Shown: positions 8,408-47,738 of the stretch, one piece after another
Numbering within the stretch: position 1 is the first letter of the stretch
How the letters are laid out: every line of letters starts with the position of its first letter
Assembly: GCF_048403405.1 (NCBI RefSeq)
Contig: NZ_CP183129.1
Source: Escherichia coli
GTDB taxonomy: Bacteria > Pseudomonadota > Gammaproteobacteria > Enterobacterales > Enterobacteriaceae
DNA length: 64,000 nt
Reading direction: 5' to 3' (one strand)
Position numbers and translations under genes: made by a program
The notes under the pieces: generated by a model
Told to the model about the DNA's origin: nothing
The model's database searches: none
The model's input: the letters and a program-made list of their open reading frames with translations, nothing else

Positions 8408-9508
8408 ATGACCCCCGAACACCTTCCAACAGAACAGTATGAAGCGCAGTTAGCCGAAAAAGTGGTACGTTTGCAAAGTATGATGGCACCGTTTTCTAAC
8501 CTGGTTCCGGAAGTGTTTCGCTCGCCGGTCAGTCATTACCGGATGCGTGCGGAGTTCCGCATCTGGCACGATGGCGATGACCTGTATCACATCATTTTCG
8601 ATCAACAAACCAAAAGCCGCATCCGCGTGGATAGCTTCCCCGCCGCCAGTGAACTTATCAACCAGTTGATGACGGCGATGATTGCGGGTGTGCGTAATAA
8701 TCCCGTTCTGCGCCACAAGTTGTTCCAGATTGATTACCTCACCACGCTGAGTAATCAGGCGGTGGTTTCCCTGCTGTACCATAAGAAGCTGGATGATGAG
8801 TGGCGTCAGGAAGCGGAAGCCCTGCGCGATGCACTGCGAGCGCAGAATCTGAATGTGCATCTGATTGGTCGGGCAACGAAAACCAAAATCGCGCTGGACC
8901 AGGATTACATCGATGAACGTCTGCCAGTCGCAGGGAAAGAGATGATCTACCGTCAGGTAGAAAACAGCTTTACCCAGCCGAACGCGGCGATGAATATTCA
9001 GATGCTGGAATGGGCGCTGGACGTCACCAAAGGCTCAAAAGGCGATTTACTGGAGCTGTACTGCGGCAACGGTAACTTTTCATTAGCACTGGCGCGCAAT
9101 TTTGATCGGGTATTAGCCACCGAAATCGCTAAGCCGTCGGTCGCTGCCGCGCAATACAACATTGCCGCTAACCATATTGATAACGTACAAATTATTCGTA
9201 TGGCGGCAGAAGAATTTACTCAGGCGATGAATGGCGTACGCGAGTTTAACCGCCTGCAAGGGATCGATTTAAAGAGTTATCAGTGCGAAACCATTTTTGT
9301 CGACCCACCACGCAGCGGTCTGGACGGTGAAACCGAGAAAATGGTGCAGGCGTATCCACGTATTCTGTATATCTCCTGCAATCCGGAAACGTTATGCAAG
9401 AATCTGGAAACATTAAGTCAGACGCACAAGGTCGAACGTCTGGCTCTGTTTGATCAGTTCCCCTACACGCACCATATGGAATGCGGCGTATTACTGACCG
9501 CGAAGTAA
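8408..9508 (+). CDS. trmA: tRNA (uracil54-C5)-methyltransferase
   Basis: 366-aa [22 protein letters not shown]…; SAM-methyltransferase motifs; K-12 synteny. Confidence 0.9.
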
Positions 9509-38949: not shown

Positions 38950-39249
38950 GAAAAGCCGAGGGGCGTCAACCGAAAAATGACCAATGATGGTGAGGAAAAA
39001 TCAGGGAAGTTGAAAAAAACTCATCTTAATTAGAGGCGATAAAAGATTTCTCTATAGCGCAATCCACCTCGCACGTTTTGACTGATATTCTGACAACACA
39101 GCGACACCTGGGCTTATTCGAAAAACAACGTCCTGCCACCGGATGGTGATGCTAAGGCATCTGATTCGGCCTGCGCCCTCGCGTAGGCCGAATACTGGAT
39201 CTGCAAAATCAACTGGTAACAAACAGATGAATCAACTCAATACGTACTT

Positions 39250-40803
39250 TTACTTGATATCTTTCACGCGCATACCGTTGATCTGTTCATCCGTGATGGT
39301 GTTACCCGCTTTGAAGTAATCAACCACGGCGTGATAAACGTAATAACCGCCCGTTGTGTTACGCGCTTTCCCTTCGGTAAAGGCGGTAAAACCATCTCCA
39401 CCATCAGCAAGGAAACTCTGAGTAGCAATGTGGTAAATCGTCGCATCTTCAATGGGTTTGCCATTCAGAGTCAGCGTGATTACCCGCTGACCAACCGGCT
39501 TACTGCTGTCGTACTTCATTTCCAGGCCTTTCGATACCTGTAAAACGCCATTACTTAAACTTGCGCCGTGTTCCATCAAACTGCGTAATTGTTTACCCGT
39601 GAGATCCATCGTCACCAGTTCGTTGGGAAACGGGAAGGTACTGATGACGCCGCCCATCGTAATCGCCCCTGCGGGGATCTCATTGCGAATGCCGCCAGAG
39701 TTGGTTAACGCCAATTGGGTGTTTTTACCCGCCGCTACCAGTAAAGCATCAGCCGCCAGGTTCCCGAGGGAAGCCGATTCACCATAGGCACGTTTTAATT
39801 CAACCGGCGATTTCGCGACCGTTTGTTGCACCACTTCATCAAGCTTTTTATTCCAGCCGTCGATCACCTGTTTTGTTTGCGGATCGGGCTTCCACTCGTC
39901 GGCGTAAATGGTTTTAAGCTCGAAGTTTTTCACCGTAAAATCATGCGGCTTCTCTTTGTAGTCGAGAACCAGTTTGCCCACATCAATCCCGCCGCTGTCA
40001 GTGGAGAGGATGAGCGTATTGCCGACTTTAATCGGTTCCGGCGTACCCACATGCGCATGTCCGGTGATCAAAATATCCAGCCCTTTCACCTGACTTGCCG
40101 TCTGAATATCTTTATCCAGCGCGCGACGCACATCTGTGCCTCCCATACTGGACTGGCGGGCCGGAACACCTTCATGGATCAGGGCGACGGTCAAATCAAC
40201 CTTGCCTTTAAGTTCATCGATATAACGTTGTAGCCATTTAATTTCATCACGCGCTTCAATCCCCACTCGCGTTGCCGCAGATACCGTGTCATTAAAGGCA
40301 AATACACCGTGCAAACCTATAACGCCTATTTTCACGCCGTCTTTTTCGATGATGGTATATGGCTTATCCCAGAATGATTTACTGCTGTTCTGATAAAAAA
40401 CATTGCCCTGCACAATAGGGAATTTTGCCTGACTCAACTGTAATAATGTGTTGTCCCAGCCGTGGTCAAATTCATGGTTGCCTATCGTGACGGCATCAAA
40501 CGGCATAGTATTCATAATATCGATAATAGCCTTACCTTTGGTCAGGCTGCTGATATATGGCCCGGTAAAATAATCACCCGCATCAAAAAACCATGTCGCT
40601 TTATTTTTTGCTTTTTCTTGCTTAACCAGCGTAGTGATATTTGCCCAGCCGCCAATATCCCGTTTACCATCAGCGATCCACGGCACTTTATAAGGCTCGA
40701 CATGCGCATGGAGGTCGTTGGTATAAATGATGGTGACATCTTTGGCGCAAGCCCAAAACGGCAGTGTTAATGCGATACCCGCAGCAAGTATTTTAATTTT
40801 CAT
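39250..40803 (-). CDS. predicted secreted bifunctional metallophosphatase/5'-nucleotidase (UshA/CpdB family); strain-specific accessory gene
   Basis: 517-aa ORF with a signal peptide ([20 protein letters not shown]) and calcineurin-type metallophosphatase motifs (NDLHAH, GDYFTG, GNHEFD, GHAH) followed by a 5'-nucleotidase C-terminal-like domain. K-12, as I recall it, has no gene between metL and metF. Confidence 0.8.
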
Positions 40804-40935
40804 AAACAGTCCCTTTCAGTGAGATAAAGGATTGCTACATTACGTTCTGAAAGAGTTATTTATGTGAGAGTAATCACATCCACAGGGGAGCGTTGCCGGA
40901 CAAAATCAACGACCATGTGAAATCGTTGGTGATAT

Positions 40936-42066
40936 ATGTCGACTCTGTTTACGATTAATGCCTGCAAGTCGTTTGGTTGCCGTAATTTAGGGCAGCCAAC
41001 ATCTAAAGATTATAGCTGGCCCGACTATCGGCTGGGTTATCCGGCATTGCACTGTCGGGCATGTGGCAGTTACCCGCCGTTGTTTGACGAGCAACAATTT
41101 CGTGACTGGTTGTCAGTTCACTTATCTACTTTTGCAACAGAGAAAGGCCATTTTTGCCCGGTATGTTATGGCACAAAGACGATTTGTTATGGCCACAATC
41201 CACAGGGGTCGCAACGCATTCAATGTCGTAACTGCAAAAAAGTCTGGACACCTAAACAATATCAGAAAGAAATAACGCCTCCTGAAATAATCGAAACGGT
41301 TGCTCTTCTGGTGCCATTTCAGGGAGCCAGCAATGGGCAGAAACTGTATGTTTTAATCAGTTTTGATGCTCTTCGCGGTAATATTCTTCATCTTTCTACT
41401 AATTACACGCAGCATCAGGCTGGAGAAAGTCTGCATTATCGATACAGAGGGAATGCAGAACCAGAGTTACACGAGAGTAATATTGTACAACGCGTTGATA
41501 TGCGCGAAGCACAATTTCTACGCCGCAGTCAGTTTGATGAAATTCAGTATGGCAGCGCAGCGCTCAAACGCAATGCTAAAGGTGTTATTCTGCGTCCGGT
41601 TATCACTGCACACGGGCATTTCAGAGTACTGAATATTTTATTCCCTACAGTAAAAACACATGTAATTTCACACGAGTGTTTTTTAAGAGGTGCGATTATT
41701 ACGGCCTGGGCAGAACTGTTTCGCCAACAGCAAGGTGAGATTTGGTTTATTGAAGAGGAAATAGCTGACTATACCGATAATACGCCCTGGCGTTTTCAGG
41801 GAAAAACTTATCACGGCTGGTGGAAAAATCAGTGGCAACTCTGGGTTCAGGGCAAAAATCGTAAAATGGTATGTGCATTAACGGGCGGAAATATCAGCAA
41901 AGCTGAAATGCTCTCTTTAGCAACCAGCAGACATTTTATCGACTGGCTACATAAACAAGCAGTATTTACTCACAGCGCCCCGCTTTCCGCAGGGCGCGTT
42001 ACGCAAATACTGCTTTCTCTGGCTCAGGATTACAACAACTGCGCCAGGCGGTTAATATCCGACTGA
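40936..42066 (+). CDS. hypothetical protein with two N-terminal CxxC zinc ribbons, the second resembling the IS1 InsA zinc ribbon; strain-specific accessory gene
   Basis: 376-aa ORF; motifs CKSFGC…HCRACG and CPVCYGTKTICYGHNPQGSQRIQCRNCKKVWT (compare the InsA copy in this window, CPRCQSVQVYRHGQNPKRHDRFRGRDCHRVFQ). The remaining ~270 aa match nothing I recognise. The 3' end overlaps the metL stop convergently by 37 bp. Confidence 0.55.
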   Translation: MSTLFTINACKSFGCRNLGQPTSKDYSWPDYRLGYPALHCRACGSYPPLFDEQQFRDWLSVHLSTFATEKGHFCPVCYGTKTICYGHNPQGSQRIQCRNCKKVWTPKQYQKEITPPEIIETVALLVPFQGASNGQKLYVLISFDALRGNILHLSTNYTQHQAGESLHYRYRGNAEPELHESNIVQRVDMREAQFLRRSQFDEIQYGSAALKRNAKGVILRPVITAHGHFRVLNILFPTVKTHVISHECFLRGAIITAWAELFRQQQGEIWFIEEEIADYTDNTPWRFQGKTYHGWWKNQWQLWVQGKNRKMVCALTGGNISKAEMLSLATSRHFIDWLHKQAVFTHSAPLSAGRVTQILLSLAQDYNNCARRLISD

Positions 42067-44462
42067 ATCGCCCCTGCGGTGACGTCGCGCCCCGCGCCAG
42101 GCCCACGGATCACCAGAGGGTTATCGCGATACCAGCGGCTTTCGATGGCAAAGACGTTATCGCACGGCAGCAGTGATGCCAGCGGATGGTCTTCACGCAC
42201 CGCTTCCACGCCCACACGCGCTTTGCCATTGGCATCGAAACGCGCCACGTAGCGCAGCACCAGCCCCATTTCGCGGGCCGCTTCCAGCCGTTGCACCATC
42301 TGCTCGTTAAGTTCATCGCCGTTTTCAAAGAAATGGTCGATGCTACCACCTTCGCAATGGGCAGGCACCAGCGATTCCACGCGCACCTGATCTGGTTCGA
42401 TGTCGTAACCCGCTTCACGCGCCAGAATCACCAGCTTGCGCATCACGTCTTTGCCGGAAAGGTCATCACGCGGATCAGGCTCGGTTAAGCCCTGCTGCCA
42501 CGCCTGATCCACCAGCTCGGTAAACGGCACGCTACCGTCGAATTGCAGGAACAGCCAGGAGAGCGTGCCGGAGAAGATCCCACTGATCGACAAAATAGTA
42601 TCGCCGCTGTCGATCAGATCGCGCACGGTATGGTTGATCGGCAAGCCCGCACCGACGGTGGCGTTGTACAGCCAGTGACGCCCGGTTTTTTCGAAGGCGT
42701 CGTGGATCTGGCGATATTTATTGCTGTCGCTGGCTCCCGCCAGTTTGTTGGCGCTGATGACGTGGAAACCGTGGCTGGCAAAATCGAGATACTGATCAGC
42801 AAGCTGCTGGCTGGCGGTAACGTCCAACACCACTAAATCATCATACGGATGGGCGCGCATCCACAGGAACAGCGACTCTTCATCCTGCTCGACCGCTTCA
42901 TCGTTGAAGAAGGCTAACGCGCGGCTGGCGTCCAGCCCGTCATAACTCAACAGGCTACGGCGGCTGTCCACCACGCCTGCCAGCACAAATTCAAAGCCGG
43001 TACGCGCCGAGAGCGTGCTCTGCTCACGGGCGAACAGTTCCAGCCAGCGGGAACCGATATTGCCCTTGCCGAACAATACCAGGCCGATGCGTTTTTCTGC
43101 GCGGAAGACGGACTGATGCAGCCCCTGAATCAGGCTTTCGGTCGGTCCGGTGCGCAGTACTGCCACCAGGCTGATGCCGTCATCCGACTGCCAGGTAAAT
43201 TCGACCGGCTGGCCTTTCAGTTGCTGCCAGAAGCGGTGGCAATGCAGCGGGTTACGGGTTACGCCCGCCCCAACCATCGCCACCAGCGCCAGCCCCTGAC
43301 GCAGGCGCAGTTCGCCAGGTAATCCCGCTTCGTCGAGGATTTTCAGCGCACTGTCGGCCACTTCTGAGGTGTAGCAAAATTGCAGCAACTGGCGATCGTT
43401 ATGTACGCCAACCGCCAGTGGGCGCACCTGAGCACGTTTCAGGATCTGGTCGATCTCTTTATGCGCCAGTTTGAAATCCTGGCTGGTGGGCACCTGAAAC
43501 TCAATCAAGCAGACATCATCGTGGCTGGTGACAATACGCGCACCAGTACCGGAGGCCAGCACGCGTTCAATGCGCGTGGAACCTTGATCCGGCGTGTAGC
43601 TACAGCGCAGCTGCAGGTCAATTTCGCTGCCAGAAACCGGCTGTAAAGTACGGGCGTGAAGAACGGGAGCCGCCAGACGCGCCAGTTCGCTGGCCTCATC
43701 CAGACGCAGCAACGGCAGCAGGCAGGCATCTTTCACTTTACGCGGGTCGGCACTGTATACCCCGGCGACGTCGCTCCAGATGGTGACGCGAGAAACACCC
43801 GCCAGCGCACCGATTTGTGTCGCGGAATAGTCGGAACCGTTACGCCCCAGCAGCACCGTTTCACCGGCGTTGTTACGGCTGATAAACCCGGTCACCACCA
43901 GACGTTTGCCCGGATGTTGCACCAGTAGCTGTTGCAGCAACGGGTAAGAAAGCCCTTCATCAACCTGCGGTTGCGCAGCGCGTTCAGCGCGTAAAAACTC
44001 GCGGGCATCCAGCCAGGCCGCTGGCAGCCCTTGTTGATTAAGTACCGCAGACATCAGGCGCGCCGACCACACTTCGCCGTGGCCCACCACTTCCGCATAC
44101 ACCGCGTCGTTAATACCGCTGTCGAGCAGCGCCGCCAGGCGTTCCAGATCGCTGACAAAAGCGCTAATGAGGCTATCGGCTTCTTCGGCGGGTAACAGGC
44201 CGCTAATCAGATCGCACTGATAGCGACGCAGCGTTTGTTGAACCTGATGCGCAGAGAGACGATCGGTCTGGCTTAGTTTCAACCAGTTAATCAACTGGTT
44301 AGTGGTGCTACCGGCGGCGGAAACCACCATCATATCGTCAGGCTGAGAGTACTCCGCCATAATGCCCGCGACACGCAAATAACACTTCACATCAGCCAGA
44401 CTACTGCCACCAAATTTATGCAGTTGACGACCTTTCGCCCCTGCCTGCGCAATCACACTCAT
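42030..44462 (-). CDS. metL: bifunctional aspartokinase II / homoserine dehydrogenase II
   Basis: 810-aa ORF; metB-metL operon arrangement. Confidence 0.9.
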   Translation of the reverse strand: MSVIAQAGAKGRQLHKFGGSSLADVKCYLRVAGIMAEYSQPDDMMVVSAAGSTTNQLINWLKLSQTDRLSAHQVQQTLRRYQCDLISGLLPAEEADSLISAFVSDLERLAALLDSGINDAVYAEVVGHGEVWSARLMSAVLNQQGLPAAWLDAREFLRAERAAQPQVDEGLSYPLLQQLLVQHPGKRLVVTGFISRNNAGETVLLGRNGSDYSATQIGALAGVSRVTIWSDVAGVYSADPRKVKDACLLPLLRLDEASELARLAAPVLHARTLQPVSGSEIDLQLRCSYTPDQGSTRIERVLASGTGARIVTSHDDVCLIEFQVPTSQDFKLAHKEIDQILKRAQVRPLAVGVHNDRQLLQFCYTSEVADSALKILDEAGLPGELRLRQGLALVAMVGAGVTRNPLHCHRFWQQLKGQPVEFTWQSDDGISLVAVLRTGPTESLIQGLHQSVFRAEKRIGLVLFGKGNIGSRWLELFAREQSTLSARTGFEFVLAGVVDSRRSLLSYDGLDASRALAFFNDEAVEQDEESLFLWMRAHPYDDLVVLDVTASQQLADQYLDFASHGFHVISANKLAGASDSNKYRQIHDAFEKTGRHWLYNATVGAGLPINHTVRDLIDSGDTILSISGIFSGTLSWLFLQFDGSVPFTELVDQAWQQGLTEPDPRDDLSGKDVMRKLVILAREAGYDIEPDQVRVESLVPAHCEGGSIDHFFENGDELNEQMVQRLEAAREMGLVLRYVARFDANGKARVGVEAVREDHPLASLLPCDNVFAIESRWYRDNPLVIRGPGAGRDVTAGAIQSDINRLAQLL

Positions 44463-46974: not shown

Positions 46975-47738
46975 GGTGATGCCTCCAATTAGTTGAATTA
47001 AGGATATAATACTCGCTTTTAAGGTTGTTTCATGGTCACAGTTAACCTTCATTGTCCCCGTTGCCAGTCCGTTCAGGTTTACCGTCACGGGCAGAACCCC
47101 AAAAGACATGATCGATTCCGCGGCCGTGACTGTCACCGGGTATTTCAACTCAGTTACTGTTACGAGCCCCGTAAACCGGGAGTTAAAGACCAAATCGCTG
47201 AAATGGCTTTCAACGGTGCCGGGGTTCGCTATACTGCCCGTACGCTGAAAATCGGCATTAATACAGTCATCCGAACTTTAAAAAACTCTCGCCACGAAGA
47301 ATAACGTCATCCCCGGTCGCTCATGCTGATGTGGCACTCATCTGCGAACGTAGTCAGCAATGGAGCTTTGTCGGCAGTAAAGCGCGACAGCACTGGCTCT
47401 GGTACGTGTACAACACGAAAACTGGTGGTGTTCTGGCCTACACTTTTGGCCCCCGGACTGATGAAACCTGTCGTGAACTGCTGGCGCTGCTTACCCTTTT
47501 ACCATCGGCATGTTGACCACTGACGAATGGGGTAGTTACGCTAGAGAGTTACCAAAGGAGAAGCATCTGACTGGTAAGATTTTTACTCAGCACATTGAGC
47601 GTAACAATCTGACCCTGAGAACCCGAATCAAACGTCTGGCCCGCAGAACCATCTGTTTCTCGCGTTCTGTAGAACTTCATGAAAAAGTCATCGGTGCTTT
47701 TATCGAAAATATATGTTCTACTAATTGGAGTCATCACC
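46975..47738 (+). mobile_element. divergent IS1-family insertion sequence (about 764 bp)
   Basis: Terminal inverted repeats GGTGATGCCTCCAATTAG (46975) and CTAATTGGAGTCATCACC (ending 47738) resemble IS1 ends; the insA-like ORF (47032..47304) has the CPRC…C..C zinc ribbon; insB-like frames 47331..47516 and 47510..47824 are in different frames and one reads through the right IR. Confidence 0.75.
47032..47304 (+). CDS. insA: IS1-family InsA-like protein
   Basis: 90-aa ORF MVTVNLHCPRCQSVQVYRHGQNPKRHDRFRGRDCHRVFQ…NGAGVRYTARTLKIGINTVIRTLKN, clearly related to but divergent from K-12 InsA. Confidence 0.75.
   Translation: MVTVNLHCPRCQSVQVYRHGQNPKRHDRFRGRDCHRVFQLSYCYEPRKPGVKDQIAEMAFNGAGVRYTARTLKIGINTVIRTLKNSRHEE

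Follow-up and report, generated by a model that had tools for sequence, protein, structure and literature searches.

Organization of the metF-metL region

Between metF and metL of an Escherichia coli genome (assembly GCF_048403405.1, contig NZ_CP183129.1), an open reading frame (ORF), designated ORF376, was identified in an analysed stretch of 64,000 nucleotides, here called the window. ORF376 is located on the plus strand at 40936..42066, starts with ATG and codes for a protein of 376 amino acids (aa), which is a homologue of IS1-related transposases and is predicted to be catalytically dead. The gene order in the window is metB, metL, ORF376 (+), a gene for a 517-aa 5'-nucleotidase (-), metF and katG. 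The region is identical to that of strain GN02461, in which the identical ORF376 product is WP_000105523.1 and carries the label 'hypothetical protein'. The reading frame is a single unbroken one of 376 codons, and not a pair of frames joined by an IS1-type -1 frameshift. An earlier note on this DNA, made from its letters alone and referred to below as the original prediction, had reported the 376-aa ORF, its Cys pattern, a Trp-rich stretch and an overlap of 37 bp with metL, all of which were found again on reading the sequence. The results described here give good support to the view that ORF376 is a domesticated, catalytically dead transposase related to IS1, which is tied to genes for nucleotide scavenging.

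Zinc ribbons and relationship to InsA

In the N-terminal part of ORF376, two zinc ribbons were identified. The first (40963..41064, +) contains C10, C15, C40 and C43 in the arrangement C10-x4-C15 ... C40-x2-C43; its Cys residues are conserved and it is shared with insertion sequence (IS)-like relatives ('NFCKN..C.NFG'). The second (41155..41247, +) is of the InsA type, with C74, C77, C97 and C100 followed by W104; residues 74-105 read CPVCYGTKTICYGHNPQGSQRIQCRNCKKVWT. In 79 members of the family, with identities as low as ~18%, the eight ligand positions are Cys wherever they are aligned, with few substitutions at C15, C74 and C77. In the columns of the first ribbon, Cys is present in 67-68 of the 79 sequences, the remainder being gaps and one Leu at C15. 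Judged by this alignment, the eight conserved Cys residues of ORF376 are not a product of chance.

For ORF376 alone, the matches to known families stayed below threshold, with 21.3 bits for NCBIfam IS1_IS1595_Zn (cut-off 28), 21.4 bits for the NCBIfam equivalog transpos_IS1 (NF033558, cut-off 100) and an E of 0.11 for Pfam Zn_ribbon_InsA. The Pfam family was matched by 8 of 59 relatives at E<=1e-3 (best 1.4e-7), and a profile of the 79-sequence family was aligned to IS1 InsA by hhalign with a probability of 96.9% and an E of 1.8e-10 over 81 columns. The IS1 InsA+InsB sequence used here stands for the family rather than for a database record, and is only 39-46% identical to the IS1H-like copy in the window. 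Only its InsA part was aligned and the core was not aligned to InsB, so that the comparison speaks for the InsA part and not for a specific origin of the core from IS1 as opposed to another DDE family. On these sequence comparisons, the relationship to InsA is real at the level of the family only. The InsA-like zinc ribbon of the original prediction was borne out at this level, and the additional CxxxxC...CxxC pair that it had placed before this ribbon is the one formed by C10, C15, C40 and C43. Pfam, PHROG, PADLOC and PDB sequences were searched with ORF376 or the profile of its close family; apart from weak matches to zinc ribbons, no significant hit was obtained, and with respect to known anti-phage defence, no PADLOC family was matched by ORF376 at E<=1.

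The transposase-type core and its catalytic triad

When a profile of the close family was compared to 1.84 billion representative proteins, 144 matches were obtained, ~50 of them full-length (370-613 aa, 18-40% identity). With 20 close homologues, AlphaFold gave a predicted local distance difference test score (pLDDT) of 39; once the distant representatives were added, an AF2 model with a pLDDT of 94.7 and a predicted template modelling score of 0.94 was obtained. In this model, residues ~118-263 (41287..41724, +) form a predicted RNase-H-like core of the DDE type, with V122, V222 and E247 at the triad positions. The elements follow each other in the order b1 (118-127), b2 (136-144), b3 (150-155), a1 (183-196), b4 (217-219), a2 (221-235), b5 (241-244) and a4 (248-263), an order which, as modelled, is that of the RNase-H-like topology and thereby of the core fold expected for an IS1 family transposase. 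In the PDB, the Foldseek matches were weak, their TM-scores low and the best E 3e-4, and the top ones were all from the RNase-H superfamily (PIWI, EndoV, NurA and MuA); for the model, this favours the superfamily and not any specific family within it. In AFDB50, the family was recovered in Enterobacterales and Vibrionaceae, where relatives are labelled 'cytoplasmic protein', 'InsA N-terminal zinc ribbon domain-containing protein' or 'IS1 family transposase'.

In alignment A3, five of the remotest relatives, P0239, P0247, P0252, P0254 and P0263, have an acidic residue at each triad position. These residues are located in b1 ('TDRQEY'), directly past b4 ('H.EYT' or 'HEDYT') and at the start of a4 ('DQES' or 'DQDS'), which, by alignment and model, appear to be the sites expected for the DDE triad in an RNase-H-like fold. 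Where these relatives have D, D/E and E/D, the residues of ORF376 are V122, V222, which belongs to the family motif RPV, and E247. All three positions are aligned in 75 sequences; 5 of these have a fully acidic triad, the other 70 lack at least one carboxylate, and 73 keep the third position. Nearby, H228 is shared by at least 90% of the sequences, and H242, H246 and E247 are also conserved. The statement of the original prediction that no DDE triad could be placed thus holds for the residues themselves (V122/V222/E247), whereas its finding of no recognizable transposase domain does not, since the substituted triad lies within a recognizable transposase-type fold.

C-terminal to the core, a Trp-rich beta-meander of four strands was assigned by DSSP to residues 268-314 (41737..41877, +; strands 268-275, 286-293, 298-305 and 308-314). 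It contains W285, W295, W296, W300 and W303, and the Trp-rich stretch of residues 285-307 reads WRFQGKTYHGWWKNQWQLWVQGK; W296 and W300 are conserved in at least 90% of 59-79 sequences. The protein ends in a predicted helical region of residues 320-375 (41893..42060, +; helices 320-325, 329-339, 342-345 and 352-375), with the family-conserved Y366-N367 near its end, of which N367 is kept in at least 90% of the sequences.

Loss of mobility and retention in the genome

No inverted repeats flanking ORF376 were found, and no IS1-type ends within 3 mismatches were present anywhere in the window, in agreement with the lack of flanking IS1-type inverted repeats stated in the original prediction. Together with V122 and V222 at the triad, the lack of repeats or ends implies that ORF376 is a transposase descendant with a disabled active site. 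The IS-like outgroup, which is 18-21% identical to ORF376, consists of P0239, P0252, P0254 and P0263 with 570-613 aa; P0247, the fifth relative with an acidic triad, has 468 aa. P0263 lies, together with a downstream 68-aa ORF, between inverted repeats of 35 nt (91% complementary, 2174 nt apart), and recurs on contigs of ~2.2 kb in several samples, as expected of a multicopy insertion sequence. The relatives of 570-613 aa look like an undescribed group of IS1-related insertion sequences. Distant relatives which keep the triad are located at L016 503-2744 and L017 24-2267, and score 33-41 bits with transpos_IS1 (cut-off 100). In the window itself, an IS1H-like element with disrupted transposase frames is located at 47032-47704, beside yiiX and an RHS element; it is the GN02461 feature 'IS1-like element IS1H family transposase, frameshifted'.

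ORF376 DNA was detected in 1838 of 5426 complete E. coli genomes, with a median of 1 copy and a maximum of 2. Of 1875 genomic places, 1873 are chromosomal, and a multicopy occurrence at variable positions, like that of IS1, was not seen. A protein search gave 253 homologues in Escherichia, Citrobacter, Klebsiella, Enterobacter, Kluyvera, Pluralibacter and Pseudocitrobacter, none with a Pfam domain and, where named, called 'cytoplasmic protein'. Orthologues are full-length and 58-93% identical across genera. In a scan of one genome per species, restricted to the close family, 35 loci were found, 23 of which are at the metF-metL site, in at least 9 genera (Escherichia, Pseudocitrobacter, Citrobacter, Klebsiella, Kosakonia, Phytobacter, Superficieibacter, Kluyvera and, for Salmonella, S. 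arizonae); the remaining loci are at other sites, with extra nucleotidases and tsx. Two paralogous ORF376/5'-nucleotidase loci are present in one E. coli, one Escherichia sp. and one Citrobacter sp. (L022+L029, L023+L048 and L040+L049), with one copy at metF-metL and the other elsewhere with tsx and extra nucleotidases. At position 9001 of the Klebsiella (L005) and Enterobacter (L006) loci, the called start of the orthologue is ATA (Ile) in the DNA and M in the database protein.

The ratio of non-synonymous to synonymous substitutions (dN/dS, Nei-Gojobori) is 0.085-0.13 between genera, where dS is at or near saturation, and 0.25 for the closest pair. With a dN/dS of ~0.1 and saturated dS, ORF376 can be neither a pseudogene nor an ORF that arose by chance. 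The original prediction had named two findings that would speak against it: a non-expressed pseudogene or annotation artefact, which is contradicted by this ratio in its neutral-evolution part, and an intact transposase with IS ends, for which no match was obtained (21.4 bits against the transpos_IS1 cut-off of 100, no ends). With syntenic orthologues in several species, a single copy, no ends and purifying selection, ORF376 has the properties of a transposase retained by its host. Descent from a transposase is indicated by the InsA homology, the predicted DDE-type fold and the IS-like relatives with terminal inverted repeats and an acidic triad. Of the wording 'domesticated or highly diverged transposase-derived' used before, the domesticated form is the one favoured by the single copy, the lack of terminal repeats, the fixed synteny and the dN/dS of ~0.1.

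Association with nucleotide- and nucleoside-scavenging genes

The partner of ORF376 is a gene for a UshA-like periplasmic metallophosphatase/5'-nucleotidase of 517 aa (39250..40803, -), identified by NCBIfam matches. In all 34 loci in which the upstream side is present, ORF376 is divergent from the 5'-nucleotidase gene, with a spacer of ~132-145 bp. Across genera, the partner nucleotidase is 87-99% identical, which is above the 58-93% of ORF376. In the B2-type strain L002, an internal stop interrupts the orthologue of the partner nucleotidase, and tsx and two additional nucleotidase genes are intact there.

A similar association was seen for distant homologues with 21-40% identity. P0123 is divergent from a 5'-nucleotidase, and P0140 from a porin, an AphA-like acid phosphatase and a class II phosphodiesterase. 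P0165 and P0162 are co-directional with a 5'-nucleotidase gene and directly downstream of it, and P0207 is directly downstream of a nucleoside phosphorylase of the PNP/UDP family. P0152 is transcribed away from transaldolase, add and deoCABD and has TatD and a Bmp-type ABC transporter on its flanks, and P0154 is found at the end of a cluster of Tsx, sulfatase and anaerobic sulfatase-maturating enzyme. Homologues next to the deo operon, the nucleoside phosphorylase, 5'-nucleotidases, the porin group or Tsx with the sulfatase are 21-27% identical to ORF376. Another constant regulator gene was not found in these clusters. A gene link this consistent across deep divergence is very unlikely to arise by chance, and implies a role of the family in the scavenging of nucleotides and nucleosides. 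The pairing with the 5'-nucleotidase and the family-wide link to scavenging, which do not appear in the original prediction, are the most informative features of ORF376.

The divergent control region

The spacer between the two start codons comprises 132 bp (40804..40935) and is present in 37 distinct versions; with ~85% identity in an alignment of five genera, it is more conserved than the ORF376 protein. It contains a perfect core of the form TGTGA-N6-TCACA (TGTGAgagtaaTCACA, 40863..40878), which from the known consensus we take to be a candidate site for the cyclic AMP (cAMP) receptor protein CRP. Its centre lies 65.5 nt from the ATG of ORF376 and 67.5 nt from that of the 5'-nucleotidase gene, and the core is conserved or nearly so in all genera. 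CRP-like sites were also identified upstream of distant homologues, at -74 (L008) and, for two others that are also divergent, at -87 (L009) and -117 (L055).

On both sides of this core, inverted repeats were identified. The repeat CAACGA-N10-TCGTTG (40907..40928) abuts the start of ORF376 and may be an operator or a hairpin in the 5' untranslated region (UTR); its 3' arm, AAATCGTTGGT, is unchanged in 36 loci of the close family and differs in L008. In this locus, which encodes a homologue with 40% identity, a repeat and a CRP-like site are found in equivalent positions with other sequences. The second repeat, CTTTCAG-N27-CTGAAAG (40813..40853), overlaps the ribosome-binding region of the 5'-nucleotidase gene, and both arms are kept across genera. 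Like the first, which in turn covers part of the ribosome-binding region of ORF376, it is a candidate for an operator or a 5'-UTR hairpin.

The metL overlap and the metF-metL island

At its 3' end, ORF376 overlaps convergently with metL (42030..44462, -) by 37 bp (42030..42066), which hold the codons Y366..D376 and the stop. Compared to the empty sites of K-12-type strains, the window carries an insert of ~3.0 kb between metF and metL (39024..42028, by alignment with L019), and the backbone resumes at ATTACAAC (42029/42030), the stop codon of metL. This junction implies that the last 11 codons and the stop of ORF376 are antisense metL backbone, as the original prediction had suspected. The G+C content of the insert is 0.43-0.51, below the 0.56-0.60 of metL. 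The island replaces ~190 bp of the ~350-bp metF-metL spacer of K-12-type strains, in which the empty site (L019 2227-2361) contains sequence resembling repetitive extragenic palindromes (REP) and an annotated hypothetical ORF of 44 aa.

Conservation in the family ends at Y366-N367, and the tail beyond differs between members; it reads 'ESLTPSC' in the second E. coli allele described below and derives from REP in Citrobacter. Since this tail is variable, the fusion to metL is probably without cost. When the metL 3' flank was compared across genera, the identical overlap was found in Pseudocitrobacter, E. whittamii and another Escherichia sp., and near-abutment in Klebsiella, Kosakonia and Phytobacter. 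In a second E. coli allele (78% protein identity, of the B2/extraintestinal pathogenic E. coli (ExPEC) type), two extra 5'-nucleotidase genes and a tsx-like gene are located between the ORF and metL. The expanded ExPEC-type form of the island is GR 31 of PMC12928451, where ORF376 is not mentioned. The short and the long E. coli islands share the junction microhomology TACAA; because the tight abutment of ORF and metL is found in other genera too, the short form may be ancestral rather than a deletion product of the long form. Inside the 3' end of ORF376, and on the minus strand immediately beyond the metL stop, lies an imperfect inverted repeat of 27 nt (41957-42015, 78% complementary, GC-rich centre), which is a possible metL terminator but is without a T-run and also encodes the family-conserved 'SAxLSAGRV'.

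Proposed role and alternative explanations

From these features, the following scheme can be proposed. ORF376 descends from an IS1-related DDE transposase and has been kept by its host. Both zinc ribbons, the RNase-H-like core and the C-terminal helices persist, whereas two catalytic carboxylates out of three are gone, as are the helix-turn-helix of the InsA type, mobility and the terminal inverted repeats. The gene is genetically coupled to the harvesting of extracellular nucleotides, here through the divergent 5'-nucleotidase and elsewhere through extra 5'-nucleotidases and Tsx. IS1 InsA binds to the end of its element and represses the promoter located there. In a similar manner, ORF376 might bind to the conserved repeats of the 132-bp divergent region and, acting with cAMP-CRP at the central site, would control how strongly both its own gene and the nucleotidase operon are transcribed; a nucleoside or nucleotide may be the ligand sensed in the disabled active-site pocket. 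Homology, fold, the loss of the triad, immobility, purifying selection and synteny are results of the analysis, and the steps that we infer in this scheme are nucleic-acid binding, the regulatory role, the involvement of CRP and ligand sensing. That ORF376 would regulate the adjacent genes, by analogy to InsA, has about an even chance, and a domesticated IS1-like transposase regulating nucleotide scavenging is, by slightly better than even odds, the best explanation overall. A wider proposal is doubtful: ORF376 would then belong to a new class of bacterial transcription factors derived from an IS1-like DDE transposase in Enterobacterales and Vibrionaceae, in which the pocket senses a nucleoside or nucleotide, the ribbons bind a fossil operator resembling a transposon end, and scavenging genes (5'-nucleotidases, Tsx/porins, deo/udp-type) are switched on together with cAMP-CRP.

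Several observations weigh against a DNA-binding regulator of this origin. In the hhalign comparison, the columns of the InsA helix-turn-helix are filled in most relatives and gapped in ORF376 and its close relatives, so that with this element deleted in the subfamily, the recognition of DNA would depend on the zinc ribbons or the core; an insert of ~60 residues is in turn confined to distant members (alignment A2). The triad was mapped by MAFFT alignment at ~20% identity and predicted secondary structure. The conserved H226, H228, H242, H246 and E247, which lie close to where the active site used to be, could belong to a new site for catalysis or for a metal. The gene neighbourhoods are a sample of 35 close and 8 distant loci (7 gene clusters and the short L008 contig). 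In the repeat at 40907-40928, the 5' arm varies, often by A>G, and these changes are uncompensated in the 3' arm, which fits pairing with G.U in RNA better than a DNA palindrome. In the full-text literature, searched by locus tags and topic, no study of the ORF376 protein and no report on its binding or expression was found, and the island itself was mentioned in PMC12928451 only.

Among the alternatives, a transposase-derived protein with a catalytic instead of a regulatory role survives best, although it is unlikely. In this case, the old active site would have become a new catalytic or metal/ligand site, and ORF376 would be a cytoplasmic accessory enzyme acting on imported nucleosides, nucleotides or nucleic-acid fragments. 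This would agree with the neighbours in the family as a whole, a set of metabolic genes from a single pathway (deoABCD, add, nucleoside phosphorylase, 5'-nucleotidases and TatD), with the operon-like arrangement of four distant loci, in which the gene follows an enzyme gene in the same direction at a distance of 12-110 bp, with the loss of the helix-turn-helix, with H228 (kept in >=90%), H242, H246 and E247, and with the many nucleases in the RNase-H superfamily (PIWI, EndoV, NurA). However, Val at two of the three metal-binding carboxylates is unfavourable for two-metal catalysis of the RNase-H type, two zinc ribbons of the DNA-binding type are strictly kept, the divergent placement over a conserved control region is typical of regulators, and one paralogue in a sulfatase cluster argues against a single fixed substrate. 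A chaperone of the twin-arginine translocation type for the export of periplasmic hydrolases was also considered and rejected, since the signal peptide of the nucleotidase has no twin-arginine motif and distant relatives adjoin cytoplasmic deo/udp-type genes.

It is rather improbable that ORF376 acts after transcription, with the ribbons and core binding 5'-UTR hairpins at the ribosome-binding regions of its own and the nucleotidase mRNA and so controlling translation or stability. The inverted repeats do abut both start codons (40907-40928 and 40813-40853), several of the A>G changes in the 5' arm are compatible with G.U pairs, the homologue with 40% identity has a repeat of other sequence in the equivalent position, and proteins of the RNase-H fold commonly bind RNA or RNA-DNA hybrids. 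Other substitutions disrupt the pairing (CACCGA, CATCGA and CAACAA), no Rfam family was matched in the 132-bp region, the co-directional distant homologues are without a comparable leader, and the ancestral activity of InsA is DNA binding. Because the covariation is mixed, a strict RNA hairpin upstream of the ORF376 start is given only this minor place.

A still mobile element, or a recently decayed insertion sequence without host function, is very improbable and has been largely refuted. The InsA-type zinc-ribbon homology, the transposase-type fold, the database label 'IS1 family transposase' of some relatives and the insertion/deletion polymorphism in E. coli (1838 of 5426 genomes) would be in line with such an element, but ORF376 is single-copy and chromosomal without terminal inverted repeats or IS1 ends, occupies the same site beside the same neighbour in at least 9 genera with a dN/dS of ~0.1 and saturated dS, has lost two triad residues and scores far below the transpos_IS1 cut-off. 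Least credible is a non-functional ORF, pseudogene or annotation artefact with a 3' end running into metL, to which the unconserved last 11 codons antisense to metL and the lack of a functional annotation among homologues would point, but against which stand the full-length orthologues (58-93% identity) in many genera under strong purifying selection, the confident predicted fold, and an accidental tail that replaces only a variable C-terminal extension.

Comparison to known systems and significance

Compared to IS1 InsA/InsAB', the ORF376 family has the same InsA-type Cys4 ribbon, followed in most members by a helix-turn-helix, and a predicted RNase-H-like core of the DDE type. In contrast to IS1, ORF376 consists of one 376-aa ORF with an extra N-terminal ribbon, no helix-turn-helix, a V/V/E triad and an added Trp-rich beta-meander and helical C-terminus, and it is a single-copy gene with fixed synteny and without terminal repeats. 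With the IS-like relatives of 570-613 aa, ORF376 shares the two zinc ribbons, the core motifs and the C-terminal YN motif, whereas the helix-turn-helix, long insertions, a C-terminal '...TPA.R.GL...' tail and the acidic triad are found only in the former.

For E. coli, CytR and DeoR are together with cAMP-CRP the classical regulators of the genes for nucleoside catabolism and of tsx. Like these, ORF376 is tied to tsx-like, deo, udp/deoD-type and nucleotidase genes and to a CRP site in the promoter region, but its fold and origin are wholly different, and no LacI- or DeoR-type domain was matched in ORF376 or 59 relatives by Pfam or NCBIfam.

To our knowledge, host-retained DDE transposases with a cellular role are well known in eukaryotes and rarely documented in bacteria. 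Domesticated transposon nucleases serving as DNA-binding factors have been described with the eukaryotic PGBD1 and the bacterial TnpB-derived TldR (PMC9538788, PMC10705468). ORF376 resembles both in the loss of catalysis and mobility, the fixed locus and the purifying selection, and would resemble them also in its reuse for host control; it differs in being derived from an IS1-like DDE transposase and not from piggyBac or TnpB, and in having no evident guide RNA. Domesticated transposases are thus a known kind, and a DDE transposase of the IS1 type fixed beside scavenging operons in Enterobacterales and Vibrionaceae would be a new form of it.

An IS1-related protein seems to have been retained over a long period across the Enterobacteriaceae, with paralogous branches in the Vibrionaceae. 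Judged by their sequences, the labels 'cytoplasmic protein' and 'IS1 family transposase' in the databases both misdescribe these relatives. If ORF376 is a regulator, it would extend the CRP/CytR/DeoR view of nucleoside use by a new layer of transposon origin, and would explain how the strain-variable metL-metF island, which is present in about one third of the complete E. coli genomes, is controlled.

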